Of a DNA stretch of 64,000 nucleotides, positions 21,716 to 38,798 are shown piece after piece; positions within the stretch are counted from its first letter, which is position 1; the number at the start of each line of letters is the position of its first letter. The notes beneath the pieces are model-generated. The model was not told the origin of the DNA. It saw nothing but the letters and a program-made list of their open reading frames with translations, and searched no databases. The stretch comes from a phage, in NCBI GenBank assembly GCA_029366385.1, contig GCA_029366385.1_4540.1; one strand, 5' to 3'. Both the position numbers and the translations under genes were made by a program.

Positions 21716-21740
21716 AGCCTCCTTCGGGAGGCTATTTTAT
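21716..21740 (+). terminator. Rho-independent terminator (UUCG loop)
   Basis: Stem AGCCTCC / GGAGGCT, loop TTCG, then ATTTTAT. Confidence 0.55.
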
Positions 21741-21751
21741 AGGAGAGACTT

Positions 21752-22344: not shown

Positions 22345-22723
22345 AACAAATCCCGCACAATACCAACAACCTCCTCAACAATACGCTCAACAAGGATCTG
22401 ACGGAGATACAACTATTATCAACAATGGTGGCGGTTCTAGTAGTAGCGGTGTTGGTGAGTTTGCTACAGGTATGTTGTTAGGGCATATGATGAGTGGCGG
22501 TAGTAATCGTAGCAGTGGGGATTATAACGATAACAGAACGATTATTAATAAGCATTATAATACACCTAAACCGAAAACTAATTTTTATGGTAAGCCTAAA
22601 CAAGAGATAAAAACTTATGAAAAGCCGAGACAAACTTTTAAAACAAATAGTAGCTATACAACTCGTAAATCTTACAATAGCCCTTTAAGTAAAAAGAGTT
22701 CATCTCGTAGCAAGCGACGTTAA
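22286..22723 (+). CDS. Putative lipoprotein (Gly/Ser-rich, basic C-terminus)
   Basis: Track ORF 22211-22723 taken from ATG 22286 after GAGGAAAG; lipobox-like LILIGCIFLTAC. Confidence 0.55.
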   Translation: MKKLALILIGCIFLTACEDETNPAQYQQPPQQYAQQGSDGDTTIINNGGGSSSSGVGEFATGMLLGHMMSGGSNRSSGDYNDNRTIINKHYNTPKPKTNFYGKPKQEIKTYEKPRQTFKTNSSYTTRKSYNSPLSKKSSSRSKRR

Positions 22724-22737
22724 TAAGGAGAAAAACA

Positions 22738-23331
22738 ATGACAATTTCTATTCGTACTTCCATCGTAGGTGTTAAAAGGTTGCCTAATGCTTTGCAAATC
22801 ACACGCGCTTTGAGGGATACATTCTCTGCTGTGGACGAGCATAAGATGCTTGATAATCTTTCAAATTGGCCCTATTTCCATTATTTTAAAAATGAAGATG
22901 ACGAGTTTATAGACGCTGTTTCTTATGGTTATGATTTCGGTAAGGAGGTTTCTGCTGAAGAATTTGTAGCTATGGTGTTCCCAAACGGTTTGCCTACTCG
23001 CAGTAAACGTAAAAAAGGACCAAAAAACAAGAAACGTGCTACTAATAAAGCTACCATTTTCTTTACTGATGGCACACAATATACTATTAAAGATTTTGAA
23101 GAGGTATCTTATACAGCAGGTGGGAATCTTTCTTTCTACACCATCAAAAAACAAAACTCTACGTTCAGCCATGTTTCTAACATGATTGAAATGTTAGTAG
23201 AAGATATTGAAAGCGTGGCTGTGTTAGGTATGCATAAAAGCTTTTTAATTACAAATATTTCAGATTTCAGTGCAAGTTTATCTGGCCCTGATTTTGAAGC
23301 CACGACCACGCATTTCGCTTTTAAGGTGTAA
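22738..23331 (+). CDS. Hypothetical protein
   Basis: 197-aa ORF. Confidence 0.5.
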   Translation: MTISIRTSIVGVKRLPNALQITRALRDTFSAVDEHKMLDNLSNWPYFHYFKNEDDEFIDAVSYGYDFGKEVSAEEFVAMVFPNGLPTRSKRKKGPKNKKRATNKATIFFTDGTQYTIKDFEEVSYTAGGNLSFYTIKKQNSTFSHVSNMIEMLVEDIESVAVLGMHKSFLITNISDFSASLSGPDFEATTTHFAFKV

Positions 23332-23334
23332 GTT

Positions 23335-23925
23335 ATGCATACCGAGAGAGACTTGCAACTCTTGTGGTGGGAAGTGATGCAGGAAATAAAAGAAGATTTT
23401 CCTGTTTACTACAACATGTTACATGAAGCAGGATATAAAGCTTGTGTTAGAAACAAAGTGAATAACTCTTTCGGTTGGTGCAACTACCGAGATAAAATTG
23501 TTGTTGTAAATTGGCACTTGCATAAGAACTCCACAAGAGATATGATCGTGGATACAATGAAGCACGAAATTGCTCATGCTATTGATGGTTGTATGGGTAA
23601 GTTTAGTAGACACGGTGCTCATTGGCAAAAACTGGCAGCAGAGTTAGGGGCTAATCCTAAAGCCACTTCCAAAGAGCCGTTGAACCACGAATATAAATAT
23701 GTTCTTGTTCTGGTAGATAGGTTTGCGACAAGATGTGTTAGAGGTTATAATCGTAAACCTAATCGCATGTACCCAGGTAAGCAACCTAATATGTGGTTGA
23801 AATCAGATAAAGAAGGGACCGAAGGAAAATTATGGTTGTATAAATGGGACGATTGGGTTAAAGTAGCTAAAGAGTACGGTGTTTCACCATATATAAGAGA
23901 TGCAGAAGAGGAGAATGAAGAATGA
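23335..23925 (+). CDS. SprT-like zinc metallopeptidase domain protein
   Basis: 196 aa; HEIAHAI (HExxH) followed by HGAHWQ. Confidence 0.6.
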   Translation: MHTERDLQLLWWEVMQEIKEDFPVYYNMLHEAGYKACVRNKVNNSFGWCNYRDKIVVVNWHLHKNSTRDMIVDTMKHEIAHAIDGCMGKFSRHGAHWQKLAAELGANPKATSKEPLNHEYKYVLVLVDRFATRCVRGYNRKPNRMYPGKQPNMWLKSDKEGTEGKLWLYKWDDWVKVAKEYGVSPYIRDAEEENEE

Positions 23926-25034
23926 CAAGTCCATTTTTAAAAGCAGCTACTGGCGGTCAGAAGAAACCTGAAATGAGCGTATTTGCTGCAACAACAGATG
24001 CAAGTAAATCTGTATTCGCTCCAAGCGTGTTAGATGCCAGTCCTGTTTATGCACCAGCGGCACCGCAAGAAGTTCCAGTTTTGCCTTCTATGACCCGACA
24101 AGAGATCGAAGAGATTGGGGCAGAGGCAGGAACAACCTTGCGTTCCTTGAATGCCGAGGTATTAAAACATCAACGTAGTAATCAAGGCGATCAGATGAGT
24201 GAACGACTCACAGCTTTGATTAAACAGGCAAAACAACTTGATCCAAACTCTATTAAACAAAGCAAGGGTATTACTAAACTCATTAAAAAAGTTATGGGTA
24301 TGAAAGAAGATCTGTTTGGGGAGTTTGATAATGTTAATAACCGTATTGAAGAGTTGGTAAAAAACCTTCAAATGGATATTCGCAAAGAAGAAGATTCCTT
24401 GGTATATCTTGAAAAGCTACATCAAGCTATTGGACAATATGCTGCAAGTTTGAACCGAGATATGCAGCTTCTAACAGCAACCTATGAAAAAGAAGAACAA
24501 GCTTTGGCTGCTCTTCCAGAAGATGCAGTAGAACAGCGACAAGTGATCCGAGACACTTTGGATCTTCTGGAGATTCGTATTGCAGATTTAAAAGCATTGC
24601 GCCTACTGTGTGTCCAAATGGGACCGCGTGTACAAGGTATGCAAAAAGTTTCTGCAAGCTTAATGCGATCTGCGCGTAACATAGTAAATAATGTTATTCC
24701 TGCTTACTCTGCTAACTTCTCAATGTATATCGAGAGCTTACGTCAAATGAAAGCAGCAGAGACGCAGAATAACGTTCTTGATGAATTTAACCTAGCAATT
24801 AAACTGGGTAGCGATCTTGCCACACAGAATCAGATCGAAGCAGCAGCACTGGCTAACCGTCAAGTGTTGGATATTGAAACTCTGCGTCACGATCAGGAAA
24901 ACTTGGTTAAGATGTTGGAAGAAACTAACCGCATCAATACGGAAGCCCGTGCTGCTCGTGTTGATTATATTAATGAAGTTCAATCTCTGGAAGACGGGAT
25001 GGTAGCTGCTGTGAAACGAGGGCTTGGTAAATGA
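23922..25034 (+). CDS. Putative TelA-like (toxic anion resistance family) protein
   Basis: 370 aa, long helical protein; resemblance to TelA is from recalled pattern only. Confidence 0.4.
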   Translation: MTSPFLKAATGGQKKPEMSVFAATTDASKSVFAPSVLDASPVYAPAAPQEVPVLPSMTRQEIEEIGAEAGTTLRSLNAEVLKHQRSNQGDQMSERLTALIKQAKQLDPNSIKQSKGITKLIKKVMGMKEDLFGEFDNVNNRIEELVKNLQMDIRKEEDSLVYLEKLHQAIGQYAASLNRDMQLLTATYEKEEQALAALPEDAVEQRQVIRDTLDLLEIRIADLKALRLLCVQMGPRVQGMQKVSASLMRSARNIVNNVIPAYSANFSMYIESLRQMKAAETQNNVLDEFNLAIKLGSDLATQNQIEAAALANRQVLDIETLRHDQENLVKMLEETNRINTEARAARVDYINEVQSLEDGMVAAVKRGLGK

Positions 25035-25228
25035 GAATCCGTATCTATATAATTGATGAGGACATTGGTGTCCGTTATGATGACGAAAAACGATTCGCGC
25101 CGATGGGAGGCATATATCCCCCAAGTGTTCTAGCAGTTTGTCGTGATTGTTATATTTATGAAGGTTGTCGTAACTTCCGTAAATTCGAACTCCTTGCAGA
25201 TATTGACTTCAATGAGGAGGAGGAGTAA
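25031..25228 (+). CDS. Hypothetical protein
   Basis: 65-aa ORF. Confidence 0.4.
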   Translation: MRIRIYIIDEDIGVRYDDEKRFAPMGGIYPPSVLAVCRDCYIYEGCRNFRKFELLADIDFNEEEE

Positions 25229-25401
25229 TGAAAATATTACGAGTGAATATTGAAACTGCTTGGTGTGGATGCAATGAGGTTGTGGATATCGAAATTGAAG
25301 ATGATATGTCTCAAGAGGATATAGAAGATCTTGCACACGAAACCTTTCAGGACTATTGTAATTACGGGTTCCATATTTTAGAGGAGGAAGAGGATGTTTA
25401 A
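25228..25401 (+). CDS. Small acidic protein (57 aa)
   Basis: Unlisted ORF; TAATG overlap upstream, overlaps next start. Confidence 0.4.
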   Translation: MKILRVNIETAWCGCNEVVDIEIEDDMSQEDIEDLAHETFQDYCNYGFHILEEEEDV

Positions 25402-25597
25402 CTACGATAACGACCCTAATATTATCCAGTTAACCCGACAAGAACTGATCACAATCATTGAAGATGCTTTTATTGATGGCTGGAATACACAAGACAATGA
25501 TTGGGGTGGACCCGAAGCTTTTCTGGAACATCATAAAGCTTATGGAGAATTTTGTGAAACCACTGTAGCTCTTGATAATCTGAAGGAGGGTTTGTAA
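25394..25597 (+). CDS. Hypothetical protein
   Basis: 67-aa ORF. Confidence 0.45.
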   Translation: MFNYDNDPNIIQLTRQELITIIEDAFIDGWNTQDNDWGGPEAFLEHHKAYGEFCETTVALDNLKEGL

Positions 25598-26160
25598 TGG
25601 GTTGTTTTAGCTTTTTGTGCAAAGAATCGGGCAAAGCTGCCCTTTCTACTTCTTTCGACGGATCACCTTGTTATCTCTTTCTTTTGAAGGACGGTGTTGT
25701 TATTGAAGAGATGTATGGCAACTATGATAGTTATGGTTGTGTTTTCTCTGGAAAGGAGGATGAAAATGGCGTTCGTGAAAGGTTCGAATGGGCTATGGAT
25801 TGGGGTAAGGTTTGTGATTTAATGCATTCCTCAAATCCAAGGGACGGTATTGCTATGGTGCTGGAAGAGTACTTTACAGGTGAAATCCCTACAGAACAAT
25901 CTGACGGAGATCCTAACCAAGGTTGGGGTGATGGTGAAGAAGATCCAGATTGTTTTTTCAGCACAGAAAAGAATAAGTTTAAACGTGTTGACAACCCTTA
26001 TCACAAAGTGCATAATACTCTCATTGAAACAGAAGATGACAAGATGGAAATTGAAGAAGATGATCCTCTTGTAACACTTCCTATAAGTGAGTTACAAAAG
26101 ATCACTAAGGAAGCTTACGATTTGGGCTTCAAAATTGGTAGAGGAGGTATGCGTGTTTAG
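25597..26160 (+). CDS. Hypothetical acidic protein
   Basis: 187-aa ORF. Confidence 0.5.
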   Translation: MGCFSFLCKESGKAALSTSFDGSPCYLFLLKDGVVIEEMYGNYDSYGCVFSGKEDENGVRERFEWAMDWGKVCDLMHSSNPRDGIAMVLEEYFTGEIPTEQSDGDPNQGWGDGEEDPDCFFSTEKNKFKRVDNPYHKVHNTLIETEDDKMEIEEDDPLVTLPISELQKITKEAYDLGFKIGRGGMRV

Positions 26161-26431
26161 ATTCAATATTCAAGAAGAAAAGTATCAAGATTTACCTATT
26201 GCTTTCGAAGATCTTGGCATAGGGGCCACATTCATGTATTATGATGCCTATGAAGACGCAGGGTTGGATACCTACCGTAACTTGGTGTTCATTAAAAATT
26301 CCACAAACAGTGCGATCTGTATTAATGGATCACTAGCACAACGAGGCTATACTCATTGCATCCCGCCAGATACAAATATGGTGGAAGTAGATTTAGAAGT
26401 TACCAATATTACACTTAAGAAGGAGAAATAA
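26153..26431 (+). CDS. Small protein, paralog A of 27453-27722
   Basis: Track ORF 26087-26431 taken from GTG 26153 after GAGGAGG; shares F-I-E.K...I.DL..G.TF.Y..A.....LD ... EV.L.VT.ITLK with 27453-27722. Confidence 0.5.
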   Translation: MFRFNIQEEKYQDLPIAFEDLGIGATFMYYDAYEDAGLDTYRNLVFIKNSTNSAICINGSLAQRGYTHCIPPDTNMVEVDLEVTNITLKKEK

Positions 26432-26432
26432 T

Positions 26433-27227
26433 ATGTCCGAGAAAATCAGCCTGAAAAAACGTCAAGAAAACCTTGCTTTCTCTCTGAAAAAGAATAAGAA
26501 CCTGAATGAAGGTAAGATTGTTCTTCGTGTAGCATGTGCTCTAGATATTTCTGGTAGTATGCATGGTCTATATTCTAGTGGGGTAGTAAGTGATTTTGTA
26601 GGTAAACTGCTTCCTTTTGGTATGTTGTTCGACGATAATGAACAAATTGACATGTGGGCCTTCAATACGAGTTCTCAAGAGCTTACTCCAGCAACAGCAG
26701 ACGTTTACGATGACTATGTTGGTAAATGTATGCGTAATATTCGTATTGGAGGTGGAACAAATTACGCCCCTGTAATGGCAGATATCTACGATGAGTATTT
26801 TGGCACTGTTACCAAATATGTTACCACTAAACAAGTGGTACAAGAGGAGGCTCCAAAGAAAGGCTTCTTTAATCGTCTGCTTGGTAAAACTGAAACAGTA
26901 TCTGTAGAGCGTGAAAAGGTTGTAGCTGTATCTGAACCAGGTGCTGACGTTACCCCTGGTGTTGTATTCTTCCAGACGGATGGTGAGAATGGTGATCCTA
27001 GTGCTGTTCGTCGTCTTATTGAAGAGAATAAGAATAAGCCTATCTATTGGTTCATGGTTGGCGTTGGTAATGAGAAGTTCAGCTTCCTGAAAGAACTGGC
27101 AAATGCTTATGATAATGTTGGTTTTATTGGCATTAAAGATTTAGACTTGACAGATTCAGAGCTTTATGACAAACTCTTATCTGAAGAGTTCGGAGAGTGG
27201 GTTGTTAAAGTAGGTGCTAAAAAATGA
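26433..27227 (+). CDS. von Willebrand factor A (vWA) domain protein, TerY-like, with TerD-like N-terminal segment
   Basis: 264 aa; MIDAS-type ALDISGSM; N-terminus MSEKISLKK resembles the TerD N-terminus. Confidence 0.65.
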   Translation: MSEKISLKKRQENLAFSLKKNKNLNEGKIVLRVACALDISGSMHGLYSSGVVSDFVGKLLPFGMLFDDNEQIDMWAFNTSSQELTPATADVYDDYVGKCMRNIRIGGGTNYAPVMADIYDEYFGTVTKYVTTKQVVQEEAPKKGFFNRLLGKTETVSVEREKVVAVSEPGADVTPGVVFFQTDGENGDPSAVRRLIEENKNKPIYWFMVGVGNEKFSFLKELANAYDNVGFIGIKDLDLTDSELYDKLLSEEFGEWVVKVGAKK

Positions 27228-27472
27228 TCGACGAGCTTGCCTCTCAAGTCGTAGAAAATTATTGGCGCGAGAGAGAAGCTTTCATTATGCGCAGTCTCAA
27301 AGAATATTTCATTGGGACTGTGCGGATGGAAGATATTGTAAGTAGAGTAGAGATTCATGTATGGCCTGATTATGAAGAATGGGTTGACAAAGAAAATGAA
27401 AATGCTATAATTCTTCGTATATACAAACCGGAGATAACATTAGGAGGAAGAAGTGTTAAACTTCGAAATTGA
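27224..27472 (+). CDS. Hypothetical protein
   Basis: 82-aa ORF. Confidence 0.45.
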   Translation: MIDELASQVVENYWREREAFIMRSLKEYFIGTVRMEDIVSRVEIHVWPDYEEWVDKENENAIILRIYKPEITLGGRSVKLRN

Positions 27473-27722
27473 TGAGCAAAAAATAAATAAACGATGCCTT
27501 ACCATTAAAGATTTGGATGTAGGAGATACTTTCGTCTATGAAAATGCATTTGACGAAAATGGTTTAGACCTTAGTGAAGTCATTGTTTATTTAAAAGTAG
27601 ATGATGGGGAAAATGATTATTCTGCTGTAGAACTAAACCATCATGCACAATTAGTAGCAATCCAAAACACATCTAAGCTTTTGGAAGTAGAATTGACTGT
27701 AACTGGTATTACACTTAAATAA
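27453..27722 (+). CDS. Small protein, paralog B of 26153-26431
   Basis: 89 aa, GTG start after AGGAGG. Confidence 0.5.
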   Translation: MLNFEIDEQKINKRCLTIKDLDVGDTFVYENAFDENGLDLSEVIVYLKVDDGENDYSAVELNHHAQLVAIQNTSKLLEVELTVTGITLK

Positions 27723-27737
27723 TAGAGGAGACAAAAG

Positions 27738-28340
27738 ATGACTGATAAAATTTCCCTGAAAAAAGGCTCTAGCGAAAAAATTTCCCTGAAGAAAGTTGCT
27801 CCGGCTCTGAAAGAACTGCGCCTGGAATTCTCTTGGAAATCTGATTCTAAACTGGATCTGGATGTAAGTGCACTGGTTTGTCGTCACAATGCCGCTGGCA
27901 ATCCGGAAATGCTGTCTGCACGTCATCTGGTTTGCTATGCTAACAAGTTTGATCCTGAACGTTCTACCTTCGCTGGTGACGATGTTCGTGATGGAACTGG
28001 CAGCATGGAGCAGATTGATATTACTCTGGCTAAAATCTCTCCTGATGCACAAGAGATTGCCTTTGTTCTGACCATTGATGATGATACAGGTCTGAAACGT
28101 TTTGGTCATGCTTCTGAAGGTATGCTTAAAATCTTCGACTCCGAGCGCAATGTGGAAATTCTGGATTTTGACTTCCTGGCTCCTGAAGTAGCTGGCAACA
28201 CAATCTGCCACGTGGCTTCCTTGGTTCGTGAAGATGGGGAATGGAAACTGAAAGCATATGGTGTAGGTAAAGCTGGTCTGGATATTTGCGATGTGGTGAT
28301 GGCCTTCGGTGGTAAAAAAGAATGGTATGAATGTCCATAA
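27738..28340 (+). CDS. terD: TerD-domain stress protein
   Basis: 200 aa; aligns by eye with enterobacterial TerD (ISLKKG..ISLKK, FVLTIDD, DGEWKLKAYGVGKAGL); CTG/CGT/GGT-rich codon usage. Confidence 0.85.
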   Translation: MTDKISLKKGSSEKISLKKVAPALKELRLEFSWKSDSKLDLDVSALVCRHNAAGNPEMLSARHLVCYANKFDPERSTFAGDDVRDGTGSMEQIDITLAKISPDAQEIAFVLTIDDDTGLKRFGHASEGMLKIFDSERNVEILDFDFLAPEVAGNTICHVASLVREDGEWKLKAYGVGKAGLDICDVVMAFGGKKEWYECP

Positions 28341-28436: not shown

Positions 28437-28958
28437 TTGCTGATAAAAAACTTTGTAACAGTTGCGTTACTATCCTTAACTGCTTTTACATTTACACCTG
28501 TTGTGGCGAAAGCCGAAGCTGCAAACGTAAAAACCGCTAAAGTAGTTCACAAATGTACAAAGCAATATAATGATAAAATTCTATTAGCTTGTGCAATTTA
28601 CGCAGAAGGTCGCGGTCTGGGTAAAAAAGGAATGAATGCCGTTGGGAATGTGGTAATCAACAGAAGAAATGATGCCTACTTCCCTAACACAGTCAAGGGA
28701 GTCTTGTTCCAGAAAGGGCAATTCTCATATGCGAAAACTTTTAACGTGACAGAGAAAGATAAATGGCAGGAAGCAAAAGCAATAGCGGAGCGTTTACTTT
28801 ATTTAGAGAAACATTTTCCTGAATTGCGGTCTGTTTTAGATGTTACTAAAGGTGCTCTATACTTCAAGAAACGGAATATAAGGACACACTGGGAGCGTGA
28901 TATGCGTCTTGTTTATCGAGATAAAGTGCATGGTTTCTATCTACCAAAGGGGAGTTAA
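28437..28958 (+). CDS. Secreted SleB/CwlJ-type cell-wall hydrolase
   Basis: 173 aa, TTG start after AAGGAGG; signal peptide; CAIYAEGRG..GMNAVGNVVINRR..FPNTVKGVLFQKGQFS matches the SleB-type hydrolase pattern. Confidence 0.6.
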   Translation: MLIKNFVTVALLSLTAFTFTPVVAKAEAANVKTAKVVHKCTKQYNDKILLACAIYAEGRGLGKKGMNAVGNVVINRRNDAYFPNTVKGVLFQKGQFSYAKTFNVTEKDKWQEAKAIAERLLYLEKHFPELRSVLDVTKGALYFKKRNIRTHWERDMRLVYRDKVHGFYLPKGS

Positions 28959-28959: not shown

Positions 28960-29244
28960 ATGCAAGAAGATAATACTGTTGTTGTAGCAAGTTACCTGGT
29001 TGTCGGTCTTACCGAAGAGGACGTATACTACACCCGTAAACATTTGGAAGCATACGCTACTTTGTTTATGGAAGATGAAAAGGATGTAGATAAATATAGC
29101 ATTGATATGATCAACGACAGTATTTATCCTTGTGTGGTTCTTAAAGTAGATGCTGTGCTGTGGGAGCGTTTTGCAAGGACTCATGATGCTGTAGAATGCT
29201 CCACAGTAATGTCTCAAAACAACATTTTAGGGGAGATTCACTGA
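28960..29244 (+). CDS. Hypothetical protein
   Basis: Track ORF 28897-29244 taken from ATG 28960. Confidence 0.45.
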   Translation: MQEDNTVVVASYLVVGLTEEDVYYTRKHLEAYATLFMEDEKDVDKYSIDMINDSIYPCVVLKVDAVLWERFARTHDAVECSTVMSQNNILGEIH

Positions 29245-29474
29245 TGGGAGAAGTCATTGAAGTAAATTTTCGCACTAAACAAAAAGTGCAAAAATATGTT
29301 GTTATTAAAAACATTTGCGTTGTCTGCTTCAATACTGTAATATACGATTCACGACGCGGAGAAAACGAAAATGAACCTTACATTGAAATTTCTAAGAACA
29401 AAGGTCAATGTATTTGTAAGAACTGTGCAGTAGCTATTAAGGAGGTTGTAAATGAAAACGCTTGGGACCAATGA
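29244..29474 (+). CDS. Hypothetical Cys4 zinc-ribbon protein
   Basis: Track ORF 29196-29474 taken from ATG 29244; CVVC ... CICKNC. Confidence 0.45.
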   Translation: MGEVIEVNFRTKQKVQKYVVIKNICVVCFNTVIYDSRRGENENEPYIEISKNKGQCICKNCAVAIKEVVNENAWDQ

Positions 29475-29643
29475 AACTGGCGAGATCTCTCTTCAAGAAG
29501 TGACAAACGACAAGCTGATTAAACTACGGGATGTAGCTCGTGACCATCTCCAAGAATCTTTTAAAGAATATATGGAAGCACGAGATCGTGTCATCCAAAT
29601 CCAACAAGAAATGATTAAACGTGGGATTGTAGCTGACAGTTAA
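29452..29643 (+). CDS. Hypothetical protein
   Basis: 63-aa ORF. Confidence 0.4.
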   Translation: MKTLGTNETGEISLQEVTNDKLIKLRDVARDHLQESFKEYMEARDRVIQIQQEMIKRGIVADS

Positions 29644-29659
29644 TATAACGGAGGGGAGA

Positions 29660-30223
29660 ATGATTTATTATATTACTCCCTATCTGACAGGAAATATCGG
29701 CAAGGCTATCAATGAAGCTATTGCCGTTCTTCCAGATGATAGTTGGGTGTGCTTAAGAGATACCGATACAATGTTCCTCCTGCCTGATCAACCATCTATG
29801 CTTGAAGAGCTTGTTATGTCAAACCCGCCTTTTGATGTAATAGGTGCAACTTGTAACAGGTTAGGTAGTGGTTATCAGCTTTTCTCTAACCAAATTAACG
29901 ATGATCCAGATATTCTAAACCATATAGAATATGCTAAGATTGCAAGAGAATATCATAAAGTGAGTGTTGAAGAAGTTCCTTTCGGAACACCTCTGGCAGG
30001 TTTCTTTTTGCTTTTTAGAAAATCATTGTGGAATGAAATTCCTTTCGAAGAAAAATCTATCCAATTCGACTTAATTTTCTCTCGCACTTTACATGAAAAA
30101 GGAAAGAGGTTAGGATTGATGCGGGGAATGTATCTGTTTCACATTTACAGATTAGGTCAAACAAATCCTCAACGGTCTATACATCATTTATTACACTGTC
30201 ACGATCACAGTAAAACTATTTAG
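29660..30223 (+). CDS. Putative glycosyltransferase (GT-A-like)
   Basis: 187 aa; N-terminal ITPYLTGNIGKAINEAIAVL ... CLRDTDTMF resembles GT-A nucleotide-sugar binding region. Confidence 0.4.
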   Translation: MIYYITPYLTGNIGKAINEAIAVLPDDSWVCLRDTDTMFLLPDQPSMLEELVMSNPPFDVIGATCNRLGSGYQLFSNQINDDPDILNHIEYAKIAREYHKVSVEEVPFGTPLAGFFLLFRKSLWNEIPFEEKSIQFDLIFSRTLHEKGKRLGLMRGMYLFHIYRLGQTNPQRSIHHLLHCHDHSKTI

Positions 30224-30231
30224 GAGAGAAA

Positions 30232-30915
30232 ATGGAAAATATTAAAATCGGAGTGGGTGTTATCACTGTAGGTGTCCGTCCACTTAAAGACTACCTTGTA
30301 ACAGATCCACATGCAGATTTTCGAGTATTCAACGATCCAGATCGTAAAGGTGTAGCTTACGCCAGGAATGAACTTATGCACCAGTTTTATGAAGAAGGTT
30401 ATGATTATTGGTTTATTTTTGACGACGATTGCTACCCAATCATGGAGGGATGGGAAACATATTTTGTAGATCAAGCTGTCTCTGGAGGATGGGATTTCTT
30501 TGGTATGCCGGAGTATTTCAAAGATAAAGTTGTTGGGAGTAAAGGAGAAGTTATTCTCTGGGAACTTGCAATGTGTCAATTTGCAATGTATTCTCGTGCC
30601 GTTGTTGAGAAGATGGGTTATTTCCGCCCTTACACTCACGGCTATGGTTTTGAAGATGCTGAATGGGTACACCGTTTGAAAGCTGCTGGTTTGAATCAGG
30701 GCATTCAGGCAATACCTTGTCCACTTCGTATCATGGCTTATATCCACCCAGACGATGTTTTTGGAAACAATCTTATGCCTTTTGCTAATCTGACAAAAGA
30801 AGAGAAAGAAGTTGCTATTGGCATTAACTGGGAAGAATATAAAGCGTCTTTAGAAGATATTAAAAATGGGAAAATCCGAATTTCTTATGAGGAGGCACTG
30901 GCACATGTCAAATAA
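30232..30915 (+). CDS. Glycosyltransferase family 2-like
   Basis: 227 aa; GVGVITVG ... GVAYARN ... YWFIFDDDCYP (DxD). Confidence 0.55.
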   Translation: MENIKIGVGVITVGVRPLKDYLVTDPHADFRVFNDPDRKGVAYARNELMHQFYEEGYDYWFIFDDDCYPIMEGWETYFVDQAVSGGWDFFGMPEYFKDKVVGSKGEVILWELAMCQFAMYSRAVVEKMGYFRPYTHGYGFEDAEWVHRLKAAGLNQGIQAIPCPLRIMAYIHPDDVFGNNLMPFANLTKEEKEVAIGINWEEYKASLEDIKNGKIRISYEEALAHVK

Positions 30916-31852
30916 AAAATGGACTAAACTGAAAATTGATGCAAAACCTCACAGTGGTTGTGATTATCATCGTATTGTTATACCATTTAACAACAATAAT
31001 TTTCAGCCTAAGAAAGATGTTGTCGTGTTTAACCGTATTCATTCTAAAGGGGCAGAATATGTTCTGTCCCTGAAACGTCAAGGTGTTAAGATTGTTGTAG
31101 ATTTAGATGATTTCTACCAACTTAATCCAGAACATTATTTAGCAAGTTTATATGAGTCAAACACTCATGCTATTGTAGCTATGGTTAAGCTTGCCGATGT
31201 GGTCATTGTGACTACGGAATATTTGGCATATAAGATCCGTCACTTAAATAGGAATGTTGTTGTGATCCGAAATGCACTTCCTTTTGATAGCGGACAATTC
31301 ACTTTGTCAAATGATCGTTCATCCGGTACCCCTGTTGTATGGGCTGGCGGTGCTAGTCACGAACCCGATTTACGACTAGTCTCTAATACTTTCGATGATG
31401 AACTTCTTACTATTGCAGGATATGAAGCATCGCAGAGTATCACAGGGCAAGAGTGGATTAAGATCCGTAGAAATTTACCAAACGCCAAATATAAAGCTGC
31501 TGTAAAAGATTTAGATAATTACATGAGTGTTTACGAAAGTCATGCTATTGCTATAGCTCCTTTGGTAGACAATGATTTTAATAATTGTAAAAGTAATCTC
31601 AAAATCCTTGAAGCTGGGGCAAAAGGTATTCCGATTGTTTGTTCTAAGGTATTACCTTATTTTAACCCTGTAGATGCTCGCGCTGTTGCTTACGCAGAGA
31701 ATAAAGCTGAATGGCATTACGAAATTGTTAAGCTTCTTCGCAATCCGAACTATCGGGAAGATCGCGGCTTGTTCTTAGCGGAACATGTTCGAACACATTA
31801 TAATCTGGCAGATGCAAACGAATTGCGACGCCAGGTTATTGAAAGTTTGTAG
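30905..31852 (+). CDS. Putative glycosyltransferase (GT-B-like), paralog of 31860-32804
   Basis: Track ORF 30866-31852 taken from ATG 30905 after GAGGAGG; KSNLKILEAGAKGIPIV. Confidence 0.5.
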   Translation: MSNKKWTKLKIDAKPHSGCDYHRIVIPFNNNNFQPKKDVVVFNRIHSKGAEYVLSLKRQGVKIVVDLDDFYQLNPEHYLASLYESNTHAIVAMVKLADVVIVTTEYLAYKIRHLNRNVVVIRNALPFDSGQFTLSNDRSSGTPVVWAGGASHEPDLRLVSNTFDDELLTIAGYEASQSITGQEWIKIRRNLPNAKYKAAVKDLDNYMSVYESHAIAIAPLVDNDFNNCKSNLKILEAGAKGIPIVCSKVLPYFNPVDARAVAYAENKAEWHYEIVKLLRNPNYREDRGLFLAEHVRTHYNLADANELRRQVIESL

Positions 31853-31859
31853 GTGAAGT

Positions 31860-32804
31860 ATGGGACAAATAATTCTTGACAATCGTAACGGAATCAATTA
31901 TAGTGTCTGCGATTTCCATAGGGTAGTGCTGCCTTACTCAAGGCAGTTCTCTTCACAACCTAAACACAACGTTTTCGTTTTTAACGGAGTGCCAACAAAA
32001 GGTAAAGAGGGCTTTTTAGCCCTTAAAAACCTGGGCTTTAAAATGGTTATGGATTTGGATGACTCTTTAGTTATTCCAAAAGGACACATGTTAGAAGGTA
32101 TTTTTGAATCAGGTATTCGTGAACATTTAAAATGGTTTTTAGAGCACAGTGATCTTGTTACAACTACGACACCTGCCTTGCAAGTTGAACTTTCACAATA
32201 CAATGATAATGTGCACATAATCCCTAATGGACTTCCTTACGATGAAGGTCAATTTGTGTTGACCCGTGATCGCTACTCCAAAACTCCATTAGTCTGGGCT
32301 GGAAGTGAAACACATAAACAAGATTTGGCTATCTTGCCCGATTTTGGTAAAGATCTTACAATATGTGGTTTTCGTAGGGATTCTGAAGTTTTAAGTAGTC
32401 GTGAATGGTCTTTAATCAGGGAAAATGTAGCACCAACTTGTGTTTATGAAGGTGTAAGACCATATGCCTACTACATGGAATCTTACGATGGTCATCAAAT
32501 CAGTCTTGCACCATTGATCGATAACGTGTTTAATAATGCAAAAAGCAATCTTAAAATTCTTGAGGCAGGTGCTAAGGGTTTACCTTTAATCTGCTCTCCT
32601 CGTGAGAATTATCATACACAAGAGTTTAAAGATTTGTTATTCTTTGCTGAAACACCTTCCGAGTGGAAAGATATTACGGAATACTTATTAAGTGCTCCCG
32701 ATGTTTGCATGGAGAAAGGATTAGCATTAGCTAAGTATGTCAGGACTCATTATCACATTGATGTGTTGAATGAGCGTCGTAGACTTTTATTTGAGGAGCT
32801 ATAA
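31860..32804 (+). CDS. Putative glycosyltransferase (GT-B-like), paralog of 30905-31852
   Basis: 314 aa; CDFHRVVLPY ... MDLDD ... KSNLKILEAGAKGLPLI collinear with upstream paralog. Confidence 0.5.
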   Translation: MGQIILDNRNGINYSVCDFHRVVLPYSRQFSSQPKHNVFVFNGVPTKGKEGFLALKNLGFKMVMDLDDSLVIPKGHMLEGIFESGIREHLKWFLEHSDLVTTTTPALQVELSQYNDNVHIIPNGLPYDEGQFVLTRDRYSKTPLVWAGSETHKQDLAILPDFGKDLTICGFRRDSEVLSSREWSLIRENVAPTCVYEGVRPYAYYMESYDGHQISLAPLIDNVFNNAKSNLKILEAGAKGLPLICSPRENYHTQEFKDLLFFAETPSEWKDITEYLLSAPDVCMEKGLALAKYVRTHYHIDVLNERRRLLFEEL

Positions 32805-33082
32805 TGATTAACACTTTTGATTTTGAATACACCACTCGTAACGGGAAAGCCTTGGTCGTGGAGGTGGATTACTATTATGAAGAACCTAATCCACTTTCTC
32901 GTGAAAGCGATTGGGATTACCACGGAGGGCTTTTAATTGACGGTATTCGTTTTTATGAAGGATCTACAGAAGTTTTTGAAAAAGATTTAAATATAACTGT
33001 AGCAGAAATTGCTTTCCAATTTAGAAAGCACATGGAAGAACTAGAAGCAGAATATATGATGGAGACTAACGAACCATTTTAA
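32804..33082 (+). CDS. Hypothetical protein
   Basis: 92-aa ORF. Confidence 0.5.
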   Translation: MINTFDFEYTTRNGKALVVEVDYYYEEPNPLSRESDWDYHGGLLIDGIRFYEGSTEVFEKDLNITVAEIAFQFRKHMEELEAEYMMETNEPF

Positions 33083-33094
33083 CAGGAGAACAAA

Positions 33095-34873
33095 GTGTCG
33101 CACATTATAACTAAATATGGATTTGATGTTGATCTTAGCAAGGAAGGACATACAGGTTGTCCGCGCTGCATGAAAAATGGCAAGGATCGCTCTCGTAATA
33201 ACCTGATGGTTTATGGATTAGATTCTAATGGAGAGCATAAAGGTGCTAAGTGCTTTGCGTGTGAATACACTATTCCTAGCGTAGAATGGTTACGAGAAAA
33301 TGGTGAAGTTTTAGAAGAAGAGGAGGAGATTGTGGGTTCGGAATTTAATAAACAGATTCATCGTAAAATTGTTCAAGAAACATCAACCAACCCACGTGGT
33401 TATCGAGGCATTAAAGAAAAAGTTTCATCTTTCTATGGTGTTCGTTATGAATACCGTCAGGAAGGGGATCAGATGGTAGTAGAAAGTTGTTTATATCCAA
33501 CTACCATCGGTAAAGAATTGGTTGGTTTTAAGCGTCGTATTCATCCTAAAGATTTCAGTAAACCTATTGGTCAAGTAGGTAAAGATGTAGATCTTTTTGG
33601 ACAAATTCGTTTTGCAGATCGTTCTCATACTGTTGTAATTACAGGTGGTGAACACGATGCTCTGGCAGCTTATCAAATGCTATCTGAAAACTTGGACAGT
33701 AAATATGAGCTTCCAGCCGTAGTAAGTGGCACAACTGGTGAAACCAGTATGTATAAACAAGTTCAGGCACAATATCCTTTCTTTGAAAAATTTAAGAAGA
33801 TTATTGTTTGCATGGATAACGACAAAGCAGGTAACGAGGCATTTGAAAATATTGTTAAGGTGCTGCCTCGTAACAAAGTCTACCGTATGCAGATGGATCT
33901 TAAGGATGCCAATCAGTATCTGGAAGAAGGCCGTGCAAAAGATTTCGTAAAAGCTTTTTGGAGTGCTCGTCTATACACCCCAGCAGGTGTTTATGCTTCT
34001 AATGTCTTGTATGAAGCTGCATTGGAATGCTTGGAATCCAAGATGATTACCTTGCCTCCTTTTATGCGTGTTGCTGCAAACATGTTGGGTGGTGGTTTAG
34101 TAGAGGAAGAGATTACAGTCATCCTGGCAAAGACCAGTATCGGTAAAACTTTGATGGTGAACGAGATCACCAAACATATTATTGTTGCACACCCAGAACA
34201 TACCCTAGGTATTCTGTCCTTGGAAGCGACTTATAAAAAGTATTCTCGTAACCTGTTATCCTCTTTCCTACACATTCCTCTACACAGGAAAACACCGGAA
34301 GAGAAATTTCAAATCTTGGAAGAGAATAAAGAAAAAATCCTAGATTTTTACGAAAGAGAAGATGGATCACCACGTTTTTACGTGTGTGATGATCGTGGAG
34401 CAGATGTGGAGTCTATCAAAGAAAAAGTTTTGGAGATGATCATCTATTTTGGAGTAACAATTCTTGTTATCGACCCTTATTCTGATTTGCTTTCTGGTAT
34501 GGATGTTCAAGCCCAGGAAGAGTTAGCAACATGGTTGAAGCGAATCATGAAAGAGTATGCTATAACTATTATCGTCATCTCACACGTTAAGAAGTCAGCT
34601 AATGGTGGCAATGAGCACTTAACAGAGGACGATGCAATGGGTAGTAGTTTCTTGGCTAAAGGTGCTGGTATTACCTTGGCTTTGGAACGAGATAAGGCTG
34701 CTGAAGATCCTGTAGAACGTAATACAACTCATTGCTTTATCCTAAAAAACCGTGAGTTCTCGGAGACTGGTCCAGCAGGGCAGTTTTACTATGACATTAG
34801 AACTGCAACTCTTCACGACAAAGAGCAGTATTTTAACAACCCTGCTAACTTACCTACGGATAGCAACTACTAA
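33095..34873 (+). CDS. Bifunctional DNA primase/helicase (T7 gp4-like)
   Basis: 592 aa, GTG start; N-terminal Cys4 zinc finger, TOPRIM-like region, DnaB-type Walker A AKTSIGKT. Confidence 0.85.
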   Translation: MSHIITKYGFDVDLSKEGHTGCPRCMKNGKDRSRNNLMVYGLDSNGEHKGAKCFACEYTIPSVEWLRENGEVLEEEEEIVGSEFNKQIHRKIVQETSTNPRGYRGIKEKVSSFYGVRYEYRQEGDQMVVESCLYPTTIGKELVGFKRRIHPKDFSKPIGQVGKDVDLFGQIRFADRSHTVVITGGEHDALAAYQMLSENLDSKYELPAVVSGTTGETSMYKQVQAQYPFFEKFKKIIVCMDNDKAGNEAFENIVKVLPRNKVYRMQMDLKDANQYLEEGRAKDFVKAFWSARLYTPAGVYASNVLYEAALECLESKMITLPPFMRVAANMLGGGLVEEEITVILAKTSIGKTLMVNEITKHIIVAHPEHTLGILSLEATYKKYSRNLLSSFLHIPLHRKTPEEKFQILEENKEKILDFYEREDGSPRFYVCDDRGADVESIKEKVLEMIIYFGVTILVIDPYSDLLSGMDVQAQEELATWLKRIMKEYAITIIVISHVKKSANGGNEHLTEDDAMGSSFLAKGAGITLALERDKAAEDPVERNTTHCFILKNREFSETGPAGQFYYDIRTATLHDKEQYFNNPANLPTDSNY

Positions 34874-35406: not shown

Positions 35407-36201
35407 TTGAGCAAGTTGAACACACTTGATCAATATTACACTAACCCCGCTTATGCGGGGTTCTTATGTGATAAGATCAAAGAAATTTTTGGAGAGGAAG
35501 CTAACTACGTAGAACCATCTGCGGGAGAAGGAGCTTTCTCTTCTTGTTTTAAAAACATAACTTCTTTTGATATTGACCCTAAGTTTGAAGATTGTATTGA
35601 GGCAGATTTTTTAGCTCAATCTGTTGAGTCTGTTGGTAGTGTAACGGCTTTTGTTGGTAATCCTCCATTCGGAAAAAACGCTAGTCTTGCCATTAAGTTC
35701 TTTAACCATTGTGCTGAAATGCTGGATAACGAAGGTGGTATTTGTTTTATCTTACCTCGCACATTTCAAAAAATCTTTTTTGCACACAAACTAAATCCTT
35801 ATATGCATCTTCTTCACGAAGAAGAGTGTCCCAAAGGATCTTTTATTCTTCATGGAGAACCTTGGGATGTTCCTTGTGTATTCCAAATATGGATTAAACG
35901 CAGCCAGAAGCGTTCTCCCGTTGTTTTAGGAGAGAATCGACTGTTCGTATTAGGTAACAGCAAAGACTACGACATAGCTGTTAGGAGAGCCGGAGCAAGC
36001 GCAGGTAAAGTGCTAACAGAAGAAGATTCTTTATCTGAAGCATCTACCTATTTTTTAAAAGCCTTGACTTCTGATCTTAAAACACGTATCATTGAGGCTT
36101 ACCCGTTACTTAAAACTGAAGCTAGTAAAACTGCGGGAGTAAGAAGTTTAAGTTTAAAAGAACTTCAGTGGGTTCTGGAGAACATTAGAAAGGAGGAATA
36201 G
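35407..36201 (+). CDS. N6-adenine DNA methyltransferase
   Basis: 264 aa, TTG start after TAAGGAGG; LDQYYTNP, VEPSAGEGAF (AdoMet motif I), GNPPF (motif IV). Confidence 0.7.
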   Translation: MSKLNTLDQYYTNPAYAGFLCDKIKEIFGEEANYVEPSAGEGAFSSCFKNITSFDIDPKFEDCIEADFLAQSVESVGSVTAFVGNPPFGKNASLAIKFFNHCAEMLDNEGGICFILPRTFQKIFFAHKLNPYMHLLHEEECPKGSFILHGEPWDVPCVFQIWIKRSQKRSPVVLGENRLFVLGNSKDYDIAVRRAGASAGKVLTEEDSLSEASTYFLKALTSDLKTRIIEAYPLLKTEASKTAGVRSLSLKELQWVLENIRKEE

Positions 36202-38798
36202 TGAGTAAGTTTACATGGGATATTGAAGCAAATGGATTGTTGAATAATGATACTATTGATTATTTAGCTAGTCCTTATCGTCTCAAAGACACATTTCAAA
36301 TGCACTGTATTGTCTTAGAGAACCATGAAACAGGAGAAATAGTAGCTTTCCACGATGGCCCTAAATACATTTTTGATGGTCGTCCTTATGAAGAGTCAGA
36401 TGATAAATATACATATGTTCTTAAAGAATATGTGGCGCAAGATTACACACATTTTCAACTAAAAGATTTCCCAGATTTTATTAATCATGAAGGTTATTTT
36501 AAAGACAAGCCTGAATATTTGGTTGAAATGGCTGTGGCACACAACGGTATCAACTATGACTGGTTGGCTACAAAACTGTTTTATGGATTAGATTACAGTG
36601 TTAAATATAACACGTGGGGTAAAAGCAAGGTAAAACTTATTGACTCCTTAATTTTGAGTAAAGTGTTAAACCCAGATCGAAAGATTGAGGGCAAATCAGG
36701 ACATAGCTTGGCAGCACTTTCTCGAAAGGCAGGCGGGGATGTAAAAATAGATTTCCGTAAAGAGATTCCAGAAGAAGATCGATTTAAGACTTTTGCTGCG
36801 GATATGCTTTATTACTGTATCTATGATAACAAAGCCAACACAAGTGTATATAATTACCTCATGGAAGAATGGGGTGATTATGATAAATGGGAAGGTCCAT
36901 TTGAACTTGAACAACGTGTAGCAGACATTATTACACGCCAGGAACACCGTGGGTTTGCTTTTAACATGAAACAAGCAGAAGAGAACCTTGCTTTTTTGGA
37001 TGCAGAAATGGAGCGTCTTCGTTTACTCGTTGAGCCTATTTTGCCACCTAAACCAGCAACAAAAGGTTATCTTAAAGCTTTTATTCCACCTAAGTTGCAA
37101 ATTAAAAAGAACTTAGAGCCAACTAACCATATGATCAATTTTGCTAAAAAACATGATGGTCATTTGGAAGAGAAGGATGGAGATTGGTGGTTAGTTATGC
37201 TTGGGAAAGAGTGGAAACTGCCAGTTGCAGCAGATGAACCTCTATGTGATCCTAACATCCCTGCAACATTGAACGATACAACCCATATTAAAAACTGGCT
37301 TGTAGGATTAGGTTGGGTACCGTCTGAATATAAAGATAAAGACTTGACTCTTAAATCTGGCACCAAAATTAAAAAGAGCGAGGAAGAACTTCAGAAAGGT
37401 ATTCGAGCTTACGTTGAGCAAACTCTATCTTCTAATTTTTGTCAGGATCGTTGTGATCATCTGGAGTGCACACCGGAAACCTTGGAAAGGAAGATTCAAG
37501 AGCGTATAGCAAAAGGTAAAGGTCGCGGTCTTAAAGTATTGACTAACCCATGTTTTACCAAAGGTCAGGAAAAAGAAATTTGTCCTAACCTGCAAGCTTT
37601 GGGTGAGAAGTTTCCTTATGCTACACAGATTGTAGAATACTTAACGTATAAGCATCGTAGGAACTCTATTTTAGGTGGCGGTGCTGATTGGGAAGAAGAT
37701 GAAGAAGATCAAGAATACGATAAAGGTTTCTTAGCCGCAGTAAGGGCGGATGGTCGTATTCCTACCCCAGCAGCTACATGTGATGCTGCAACCTCTCGTA
37801 TGAAGCATAGGTCTGTAGCTAATATTCCTCGTGTCACATCTTTGTTTGGATGGGAGATGCGTAACTTGTTTGGTGTAGAGGTTCCTAAATACTTCCAGAT
37901 CGGTTATGACTTCGACTCTTTGGAAGCAAAGATTGAGTCGCATTATTGTTGGCGCTACGAACCGGAGCCTCATGAATACTGTAACGCTCTCTTGTTAGAG
38001 AAGCCTAACGATGTTCATACCATGATGGCAAAACGTATTACAGATACTATTGGGCGTAAATTTGAACGTAGTCCGGCGAAATCTGTTAAATACGGGATCA
38101 CTTATGGTGCACAAGCAGACAAGGTTGCTAAAACAATTGGTAGCGATAAATACACAGGGCAACTGGTGTTCGATGCTTTCTGGGAAGCTGCATTCCCACT
38201 GGCGCGTCTTAAAGAACGTTTAAACGATTTCTGGGTTAAGACTGGTAAACAGTATGTTTTGGGTATTGACGGTCGTAAGGTTCCTACTCGTTCTGCTCAC
38301 GCGATTCTTAACTCTCTGTTCCAAAGTGGTGGGGTTATCTGTGCTAAACGTGCAATGGTTATTTATGACGACATGATCGAAGAAGAAGGGCTAAGTGTTG
38401 ACTTCTTTAAAGATGACTGGAAGAATAAAGACTTCGTGCAACAAATGATTGCATACCACGATGAAGCCCAGCTTGAAGTTTCTCGTAACCTTGTAGAATT
38501 CAAATGGTTTTCACCTGAATCATTAGGTTGGAAGAAAGTAGACGATCCTGAAGAACAAAAGAAAATTGATAAAGAATGTCTTGCTAAAGTCGAAGAATGG
38601 AAGCATAATAAGGAAAAAGAGACAGGGCAAATTTGGGCTAACATTCATGAATCTCCCAAAGGTGGATGGTTTACAGCCTATAGTCGGGCAGGTGAACTTG
38701 CTGCTTTAGCTGTTACTAAGGCTGGAGAATTTTACAATCTTAACGTTCAGCTTACTGCCGGATATGATGTGGGTAATTCCTGGGCATCCTGTCATTGA
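36201..38798 (+). CDS. Family A DNA polymerase with 3'-5' exonuclease domain
   Basis: 865 aa, GTG start; Exo I WDIEANGL, motif A DFDSLEAKI, motif B RSPAKSVKYGITYG, motif C YHDE. Confidence 0.9.
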   Translation: MSKFTWDIEANGLLNNDTIDYLASPYRLKDTFQMHCIVLENHETGEIVAFHDGPKYIFDGRPYEESDDKYTYVLKEYVAQDYTHFQLKDFPDFINHEGYFKDKPEYLVEMAVAHNGINYDWLATKLFYGLDYSVKYNTWGKSKVKLIDSLILSKVLNPDRKIEGKSGHSLAALSRKAGGDVKIDFRKEIPEEDRFKTFAADMLYYCIYDNKANTSVYNYLMEEWGDYDKWEGPFELEQRVADIITRQEHRGFAFNMKQAEENLAFLDAEMERLRLLVEPILPPKPATKGYLKAFIPPKLQIKKNLEPTNHMINFAKKHDGHLEEKDGDWWLVMLGKEWKLPVAADEPLCDPNIPATLNDTTHIKNWLVGLGWVPSEYKDKDLTLKSGTKIKKSEEELQKGIRAYVEQTLSSNFCQDRCDHLECTPETLERKIQERIAKGKGRGLKVLTNPCFTKGQEKEICPNLQALGEKFPYATQIVEYLTYKHRRNSILGGGADWEEDEEDQEYDKGFLAAVRADGRIPTPAATCDAATSRMKHRSVANIPRVTSLFGWEMRNLFGVEVPKYFQIGYDFDSLEAKIESHYCWRYEPEPHEYCNALLLEKPNDVHTMMAKRITDTIGRKFERSPAKSVKYGITYGAQADKVAKTIGSDKYTGQLVFDAFWEAAFPLARLKERLNDFWVKTGKQYVLGIDGRKVPTRSAHAILNSLFQSGGVICAKRAMVIYDDMIEEEGLSVDFFKDDWKNKDFVQQMIAYHDEAQLEVSRNLVEFKWFSPESLGWKKVDDPEEQKKIDKECLAKVEEWKHNKEKETGQIWANIHESPKGGWFTAYSRAGELAALAVTKAGEFYNLNVQLTAGYDVGNSWASCH

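Follow-up and report, generated by a model that had tools for sequence, protein, structure and literature searches.

A conserved array of four glycosyltransferase genes in the replication block of a Phapecoctavirus genome, possibly involved in the assembly of a rhamnose-containing glycan

Four consecutive open reading frames (ORFs), located at positions 29660–32804 on the + strand of a 64,000-nucleotide stretch of phage DNA (GenBank assembly GCA_029366385.1, contig GCA_029366385.1_4540.1; this whole stretch is hereafter referred to as the window), form a tandem array of glycosyltransferase genes. The window originates from a phage of the genus Phapecoctavirus: its positions 29000–34000 are 99.8% identical to Escherichia phage ESCO5 (NC_047776.2; Stephanstirmvirinae), and dozens of other phAPEC8-like phages show at least 98% identity over the same region. 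The four genes, designated here GT1 to GT4 (glycosyltransferase families bearing the same numbers are always called families), are co-directional and tightly packed, with intergenic gaps of at most 8 nt or with overlaps. They comprise GT1 (29660–30223, 187 amino acids), GT2 (30232–30915, 227 amino acids), GT3 (30905–31852, 315 amino acids) and GT4 (31860–32804, 314 amino acids). The longest ORF of GT3 begins at position 30866, the start listed for this gene; the true start is probably at 30905, because a GAGGAGG ribosome-binding site lies ahead of this position and the RefSeq start agrees with it. Translated from 30905, GT3 overlaps the 3' end of GT2 by 11 nt.

The array is flanked by a gene for a cell-wall hydrolase (Hydrolase_2 of Pfam, 28437–28958) and by a primase/helicase gene (33095–34873), which corroborates its placement within the replication block, as given in the initial annotation of this DNA. 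Scanning for promoters and terminators revealed no terminator-like sites on the + strand between approximately 28400 and 33975; the scan gave no excess over shuffled sequence and does not delimit a separate transcription unit. In public databases the genes are already annotated. RefSeq labels all four counterparts in ESCO5 (gp211–gp214) as "glycosyltransferase", while in the BASEL annotation the orthologues of the phi92-like phage EmilieFrey appear as two putative glycosyltransferases and two putative disaccharide synthases. The array is thus real and was correctly described, and it belongs to a known kind of locus, i.e. the phage-encoded glycosyltransferase clusters.

All four proteins match PHROG glycosyltransferase families end to end, with E-values ranging from 1e-78 to 1e-149. 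The first of them, GT1, corresponds to phrog_14179 (E=8.5e-113) and has no match in Pfam. Its AlphaFold2 model (pLDDT 90) was compared with the PDB using Foldseek, and all the significant matches were GT-A glycosyltransferases (probability 1.0, TM-scores of about 0.5), including LH3, WrtF, LARGE1, ColGalT1, AvpGT, TarP and RmlT. Both aspartates of the DxD motif (D34 and D36) are invariant in an alignment of 25 homologues. Judging from this model, GT1 is a predicted glycosyltransferase of the GT-A fold.

The same fold can be ascribed to GT2 (phrog_2456, E=4e-78) on the basis of its motifs and distant relatives. Residues D64, D65 and D66 (the DDD motif) as well as E141 and D142 of the YGFED motif are invariant in the alignment. 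The Pfam matches of GT2 to TAGT, family GT2 and Glyco_transf_7C are weak (14–19 bits versus cut-offs of 23–27.5), but distant relatives recognized by the GT2 profile (E of about 1e-17 to 1e-23) exceed the Pfam cut-offs for Glycos_transf_2 and Glyco_transf_7C. An exhaustive search with a hidden Markov model of GT2 among 1.84 billion proteins identified 958 cluster representatives at E<=1e-3. Profile searches of PDB sequences with GT1 and GT2 gave no matches, phmmer searches of the same sequences with GT1, GT2 and GT4 gave chance matches only, and none of the array proteins had a match in NCBIfam. Neither GT-A protein reaches any curated threshold of Pfam or NCBIfam, and both represent small, phage-restricted families; their assignment to the superfamily is accordingly based on fold, motifs and transitive homology.

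The other two proteins are paralogues that share 41% identity and the KSNLKILEAGAKG motif, and both match phrog_7162 (E=7e-149 for GT3 and 8.5e-145 for GT4). Matches to Pfam lie under the thresholds: GT3 weakly matches Glyco_trans_1_4 (22.6 bits versus a cut-off of 27) and Glyco_trans_1_2, and GT4 reaches 24.7 bits versus a cut-off of 25 for Glyco_trans_1_2. Many close homologues carry precomputed PF13524 matches. The AlphaFold2 model of GT4 (pLDDT 94) displays a GT-B fold resembling that of family GT4, and in the Foldseek comparison with the PDB approximately 300 residues could be aligned (E=1e-9 to 1e-7) with GlgM, PglA, MshA, BshA, GtfC/Gtf3, SdgB, TarM, WaaG and PimA/PimB'. Giant-virus glycosyltransferases are among its structural neighbours in BFVD, and a profile search of PDB sequences with GT4 detected the C-terminal domains of TreT, PglA and BshA. 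GT4 is accordingly modelled as a GT-B enzyme of the family GT4-like type, and its 41% identity with GT3 extends the GT-B assignment to the latter.

These results (PHROG profile searches, structure prediction, fold search and motifs) bear out the initial annotation, in which the array had been described as four tandem glycosyltransferases: two GT-A-like proteins, one with a clear DDD motif, and two mutually paralogous GT-B-like proteins. It had also asked for a classification of the four ORFs, and glycosyltransferase folds were indeed found, directly for GT1 and GT4 (AlphaFold2 and Foldseek) and via homology for GT2 and GT3.

The order and position of the array are conserved in Phapecoctavirus, in Justusliebigvirus (phi92 gp163–166) and in the related phages of Citrobacter and Klebsiella, as well as in a metagenomic relative whose proteins are only about 50–60% identical. 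In every relative the order is the same: Ter-type genes, Hydrolase_2, small ORFs, the array, a small ORF, primase/helicase and DNA polymerase.

A second conserved locus of these phages, located outside the window, encodes enzymes of nucleotide-sugar synthesis. In ESCO5 (30493–33771) it contains RmlB, RmlA, RmlC and RmlD, all above the Pfam thresholds: gp085 matches NTP_transferase (245 bits), gp086 4,6-dehydratase (268 bits), gp084 dTDP_sugar_isom (225 bits) and gp083 RmlD_sub_bind (247 bits). The rml operon is present across the subfamily. Loss of RmlA/B with retention of RmlC/D has been described in ESCO37 (PMC10269720). We found the same state, RmlA and RmlB lost and RmlC and RmlD retained, in Mt1B1_P17, WPEC2, SF1-1, ECO340P1 and dw-ec. 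As far as is known, enterobacterial hosts always make dTDP-4-keto-6-deoxyglucose for the synthesis of enterobacterial common antigen (ECA), through the action of RffG and RffH, and RmlC/D alone therefore suffice for the production of dTDP-L-rhamnose. This suggests that the phages devoid of RmlA/B rely on host RffH/RffG of the ECA pathway for the 4-keto-6-deoxyglucose intermediate, and the retention of RmlC/D suggests in turn that dTDP-L-rhamnose is the product that the phage needs. We infer from the gene content that dTDP-L-rhamnose is likely to be the key donor for the enzymes of the array.

Several GenBank records named "Campylobacter phage" (B15, C3, A145 and A150; accessions MG065650, MG065656, MG065645 and MG065639), whose host is given as C. 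jejuni, match the window and ESCO5 queries at the identity levels of E. coli Phapecoctavirus/Justusliebigvirus phages. For B15 the identity amounts to 99.7% over positions 29000–34000 of the window, and its match to the rml operon of ESCO5 is at 99.5%. The C. jejuni host label of these records looks doubtful.

Beyond the subfamily, the pair composed of a GT2-like (GT-A) gene, its hallmark member, and a GT-B gene, sometimes joined by a third enzyme, is a mobile cassette that occurs in temperate enterobacterial phages and in numerous viral contigs, which is a new observation. The prophage distribution of this cassette was deduced from metagenome and IMG/VR contigs; a profile scan of genome contigs with GT1, using patterns that were too strict, yielded only one near-identical contig of a metagenome-assembled genome. 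In a prophage-like contig of Serratia sp. M24T3 (AJHJ01000054, 5484–7670) we identified a GT1-like gene (40% identity), a GT2-like gene (37%) and a GT-B gene (39%) arranged in the same order and located between the lysis genes and HNH/terminase. GT2-like and GT-B genes were also found in lambdoid contigs, flanked by the Q antiterminator region and the genes for lysis (a late position), and in another contig of a temperate-type enterobacterial phage between terminase and portal genes.

A profile scan of IMG/VR with GT2 returned 341 relatives, from which 80 loci were kept. In 64 of the 80, a GT-B gene of the GT3/GT4 family is the immediate neighbour of the GT2-like gene, in either order, and a GT1-like gene is also present in 17 loci. 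The genes surrounding the cassette were then surveyed in 33 dereplicated lineages outside Stephanstirmvirinae. The commonest Pfam families within three genes were Glycos_transf_2 (11), FkbM methyltransferase (8), Glyco_tranf_2_5 (3) and the terminase small subunit (3); among the larger neighbours within 8 kb, large terminase subunits dominate, followed by DnaB helicases and portal proteins. In many lineages the cassette lies 1–5 genes upstream of terS/terL, and portal genes, too, follow within this distance. The only homologue of GT1 outside the clade, in Cellulophaga phages (phi12:1), constitutes the C-terminal half of a 407-amino-acid glycosyltransferase, whose gene adjoins a methyltransferase gene and is located within the head-gene module, between the portal/minor capsid and protease/major capsid genes. 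In Streptomyces phage Zuko a weak relative of the GT-B proteins is encoded between a sugar epimerase and the terminase.

The location of the array raises the question of whether DNA is the acceptor. According to this explanation, rhamnose or hexoses would be attached to a hydroxylated base as an anti-restriction measure, as in the case of the glucosylated hydroxymethylcytosine (hmC) of T4 or the arabinosylated 5-hydroxycytosine (5hoC) of RB69, and Olsen et al. 2020 indeed proposed rhamnosylation of hydroxymethylated bases for these phages (PMC7552041). The proximity of the array to genes for primase/helicase, an N6-adenine methyltransferase-like protein and DNA polymerase, and the ability of the phage to make its own nucleotide sugar, are both in line with this proposal. 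They recall the DNA glycosylation systems of T4, RB69, DLP3 and TET-associated loci, in which GT-A/GT-B genes reside among DNA-metabolism genes (PMC13326640; bioRxiv 10.1101/2023.12.21.572611), RB69 and DLP3 also encoding their own nucleotide-sugar pathway (PMC13326640). In addition, GT2 shows a weak local match to Pfam TAGT (E=0.0013, below the cut-off, 36 residues) and matches phrog_842, named after the T-even DNA glucosyltransferase, over 40 residues only.

Unlike those systems, ESCO5 lacks an annotated hydroxylase of the ThyA or TET type. The only thymidylate-synthase-like gene of ESCO5, gp097, encodes a ThyX/Thy1 protein, which does not belong to the ThyA family, i.e. to the kind of enzymes that make hmC, hydroxymethyluracil or 5hoC (PMC13326640). 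No ThyA-family hydroxymethylase/hydroxylase or TET/JBP protein is annotated in the 149-kb ESCO5 genome (not every ORF of which was profile-searched), and we agree with the initial annotation that no base hydroxymethylase is encoded in the window. The mobile cassettes present the same picture: the homologous cassettes, which occur also in lambdoid phages, never adjoin base-hydroxylating enzymes, no such enzymes were found among 136 neighbours of homologous cassettes, and thymidylate-synthase, TET and DNA-methylase families are absent from the top 25 neighbour families of the 33 lineages. The array proteins themselves show no significant sequence similarity to known DNA glycosyltransferases: a tblastn search gave no T-even or RB69 matches to the array genes, and the T4 alpha- and beta-glucosyltransferases were not among the top 50 structural matches in BFVD. 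The acidic character of GT1, GT2 and GT4 (pI 4.9–6.0) also speaks against DNA, although net charge and pI constitute weak evidence.

Published restriction data point in the same direction. HincII typing (restriction fragment length polymorphism) worked on all phages of the ESCO collection except three T-even ones; hence the enzyme cuts ESCO5, with its nearly identical array region (99.8%), as well as ESCO13, ESCO25, ESCO37 and the phi92-like ESCO8, ESCO9 and ESCO32 (PMC10269720). The phi92-like phages Bas60–62 of the sister genus also possess the array, and restriction-modification systems act on them with such effect that they were termed "exceptionally susceptible" (PMC8594841). The Durham phages Paula (confirmed to be identical with Pau) and PATM, equipped with both the array and rml, are restricted approximately 10^7-fold by BREX and fall outside the class sensitive to BrxU, an enzyme that cleaves DNA containing 5-methylcytosine, 5-hmC and glucosyl-5-hmC (PMC8565348). 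A base glycosylated genome-wide is therefore very unlikely, and we regard anti-restriction glycosylation of DNA bases as highly improbable. A sparse, motif-specific rhamnosylation of DNA, which would escape the restriction tests done so far, has in our estimation only a slight chance of being correct. The substrate had initially been left open among DNA bases, virion proteins and host polysaccharide; this list can now be narrowed, since the first option is disfavoured by the presence of ThyX only and by the restriction data. Restriction-sensitive DNA had also been expected to count against the whole description; it affects only the DNA branch, and the identification of the glycosyltransferases is not altered.

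Taking the above into account, we tentatively favour, at somewhat less than an even chance, a model in which a glycan containing rhamnose is assembled in the cytoplasm on an acceptor other than DNA, virion proteins being the most likely one. We propose that the four enzymes, as soluble cytoplasmic proteins dependent on nucleotide sugars, would act in sequence to build a short oligosaccharide. One donor, very likely dTDP-L-rhamnose, would be supplied by the phage RmlABCD enzymes and the remaining ones by the pool of host UDP-sugars. One or more virion proteins of the phage would be glycosylated in the cytoplasm, before or during assembly. While the folds, catalytic motifs, conservation, cassette mobility and presence of the rhamnose pathway were established above, the sequential action, the rhamnose donor and the protein acceptor belong to this proposal. 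An oligosaccharide attached to a shared acceptor would best explain the solubility of the enzymes, the mobility of the cassette between virulent and temperate phages of different hosts, the clusters of several glycosyltransferases and sugar methyltransferases beside head/packaging genes, and the late positions of these genes. The virion is the obvious candidate, since it would be the one acceptor that virulent myoviruses share with temperate siphoviruses whose hosts are different.

Two groups of viruses provide parallels for such an activity. Freeman and co-workers are said to have reported in 2023 (Cell Host Microbe) that the mycobacteriophages Che8, Corndog and Myrna encode their own virion glycosylation. 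In mycobacteriophages the work is done in the cytoplasm by soluble glycosyltransferases, which assemble O-linked glycans on proteins of the capsid and tail and are often accompanied by a sugar methyltransferase. The distant homologues of the glycosyltransferase pair resemble these systems in being placed in clusters with several glycosyltransferases and FkbM beside head/packaging genes; the array studied here differs in its Gram-negative host, the lack of a methyltransferase and its placement in the replication block, and the likeness is one of gene content. The second parallel is provided by chlorovirus PBCV-1 and giant viruses, which possess rhamnose synthesis, rhamnosyltransferases of the A064R type and rhamnose-containing capsid glycans. 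They share with the phages a nucleotide-rhamnose pathway and soluble GT-A/GT-B enzymes, there sometimes together with sugar methyltransferases, and their target is their own particle. Unlike the phages, these are viruses of eukaryotes; the likeness is again one of gene content and not of demonstrated specific homology, and A064R was not among the top PDB matches of GT1.

Several observations weigh against glycosylation of the virion. In the literature, virion glycoproteins have not been demonstrated in any member of Stephanstirmvirinae, and we found no paper in which this was tested. The array is placed in the replication/nucleotide-metabolism block and not among the late genes, and it contains no methyltransferase gene. 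Ser/Thr-rich tails are absent from the capsid, decoration, sheath and tube proteins of ESCO5, which is uninformative with regard to glycosylation. In small phage genomes the proximity of the cassette to terminase genes is only modestly above that of chance placement. Moreover, folds of the family GT4-like and family GT2-like types fail to separate enzymes acting on proteins, lipid-linked compounds, small molecules and DNA: the DNA arabinosyltransferases of RB69 and DLP3 match the same PDB entries as the array enzymes, and fold searches with them and with GT4 give the same generic family GT4 templates, BshA, MshA and sucrose-phosphate synthase (PMC13326640). Another paper describes ten phages, coliphage JEP7 among them, as free of virion glycoproteins, but it could not be tied to this phage group.

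The composition of the cassette neighbourhoods may also be read in terms of the host envelope. In this case the enzymes would act at the inner membrane face, on undecaprenyl-linked intermediates (Und-PP-GlcNAc, formed by host WecA) or on the core of lipopolysaccharide (LPS), and RmlC/D would divert the ECA precursor dTDP-4-keto-6-deoxyglucose to rhamnose. The resulting alteration or depletion of ECA, LPS or O-antigen receptors would block superinfection or reduce the trapping of progeny on debris. Bacterial loci for O-antigen and glycolipids are typically made up of families GT2, GT4 and FkbM, a pattern to which the neighbours of the cassette conform; the structural neighbours of GT4 include PglA, PimA/PimB', WaaG and TarM. 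It is worth mentioning that related phages use ECA as the primary receptor and LPS core glucose as the secondary one (PMC8594841). The persistence of RmlC/D in phages that have lost RmlA/B is likewise consistent with use of the host RffG/RffH product, a component of the ECA pathway.

What speaks against this explanation is that the cassette is not accompanied by a flippase, polymerase, ligase, initiating phosphoglycosyl transferase or any membrane protein. In temperate phages it occupies positions transcribed late and not those expressed in lysogeny, and the hosts of the phages with related cassettes are very diverse and do not have the same envelope glycans. Furthermore, within a short lytic cycle the turnover from existing surface LPS or ECA to newly synthesized molecules would be slow. 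Bacterial O-antigen and ECA gene sets combine RmlABCD with WbbL-type rhamnosyltransferases of family GT2 and with family GT4 transferases. The phage genes belong to the same enzyme superfamilies and share the donor pathway, with orthologue-level matches for RmlA–D of ESCO5; unlike these sets, the phage possesses no initiating transferase, flippase, polymerase or ligase, and GT1 and GT2 represent small families restricted to phages. Temperate phages that cause seroconversion (GtrABC, Oac, epsilon15, D3) modify the O-antigen, the Gtr proteins being integral membrane proteins that act in the periplasm and are expressed from prophages. The array is similar to these systems in being a phage-borne set of glycan-modifying genes (in the case of seroconversion, changing the host receptor), and differs from the Gtr systems in encoding four soluble proteins with no match to membrane-protein families in a virulent myovirus, and in the late positions of its temperate homologues. 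On balance, remodelling of the host envelope glycan seems rather unlikely. The more specific scenario, in which portable cytoplasmic transferases together with RmlC/D hijack the ECA precursor and undecaprenyl-linked intermediates, and thereby rewrite or starve the receptors of the phage during lytic growth, is also unlikely, and slightly more so.

A third group of possible non-DNA acceptors comprises other intracellular targets, i.e. a small molecule (e.g. a nucleoside-like metabolite of the adjacent Ter-type cluster) or a non-structural protein of the host or phage. Modification of such a protein would serve as a takeover or counter-defence step, or would proceed in the manner of EarP, which rhamnosylates EF-P. 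The synteny of the array with the Ter-type cluster immediately upstream, observed here and in a divergent relative, is consistent with this concept, as is the position of the array among early/middle genes, which suits a takeover function. Besides, AvpGT, a glycosyltransferase of nucleoside analogues, is a structural neighbour of GT1, and the small-molecule enzymes MshA and BshA are neighbours of GT4. We nevertheless consider such an acceptor quite improbable: no Ter genes accompany the cassette in temperate phages or in IMG/VR contigs, the number of transferases (four, with added sugar methyltransferases in the relatives) suggests an oligosaccharide and not a single regulatory sugar, and there is no direct evidence for any acceptor of this kind.

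The genes adjoining the array are of interest in their own right. Immediately upstream, positions 19111–28340 (+) are occupied by a Ter-type cluster, which includes genes for PRTase_3 (19111–19938), a Macro domain protein (19948–20421), TerC (20735–21709), a SprT-like protein (23335–23925), TelA (23922–25034), a vWA-TerF-like protein (26433–27227) and TerD (27738–28340), all on the + strand. A divergent relative keeps the order of this cluster and contains an additional Band_7 gene. The possibility that the array itself forms part of the Ter-type cluster was rated low in view of the occurrence of the cassette elsewhere without Ter genes. The Hydrolase_2 protein encoded between them (28437–28958, +) is of the SleB type and has an apparent N-terminal signal peptide MLIKNFVTVALLSLTAFTFTPVVAKAEA. 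A separate lysozyme gene (gp080) and spanin genes adjoin the terminase gene elsewhere in the ESCO5 genome, and the Hydrolase_2 protein may therefore not be the main endolysin.

Downstream of GT4, a gene at 32804–33082 (+) encodes a very acidic protein of 92 amino acids (pI 4.2; phrog_4240) and overlaps the stop codon of GT4 (ATGA). In phi92-like and more distant relatives, too, an ORF of approximately 89–92 codons is found between GT4 and primase/helicase, but it is absent beside the cassettes of temperate phages. Between the primase/helicase and DNA polymerase genes lies an ORF (35407–36201, +) with an NPPF motif (VGNPPFGKN), which the ESCO5 record lists as a putative N6-adenine DNA methyltransferase; at least four further DNA methyltransferases are annotated in that phage. 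The DNA polymerase ORF (36201–38798) encodes 865 amino acids in the window versus 1110 amino acids annotated in ESCO5 (100672–104004). Position-matched stretches no longer align, which indicates an indel of approximately 0.7 kb inside the gene or at its end; ESCO5 may have acquired an intein or another mobile element there. It follows that the window originates from an isolate other than ESCO5.

Phages of the genera Phapecoctavirus and Justusliebigvirus belong to the broad-host-range coliphages that are isolated most often, and they serve as components of therapeutic cocktails; all of them devote about 3 kb of their genomes to four glycosyltransferases and another 3 kb or so to rhamnose synthesis. 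The popular idea that these genes serve DNA rhamnosylation is poorly supported, and the balance shifts towards a function related to proteins or to a glycan coat. If the virion is indeed coated with a glycan, phages of Gram-negative bacteria would have their first example of this kind, with direct consequences for how therapeutic phages are recognized by antibodies, how they are cleared and how stable they are. If an envelope glycan of the host is the target instead, the array would offer a lytic phage a novel means of controlling its receptor. Since the same GT-A/GT-B cassette circulates among many unrelated phages, small temperate phages provide tractable systems in which the substrate can be studied.

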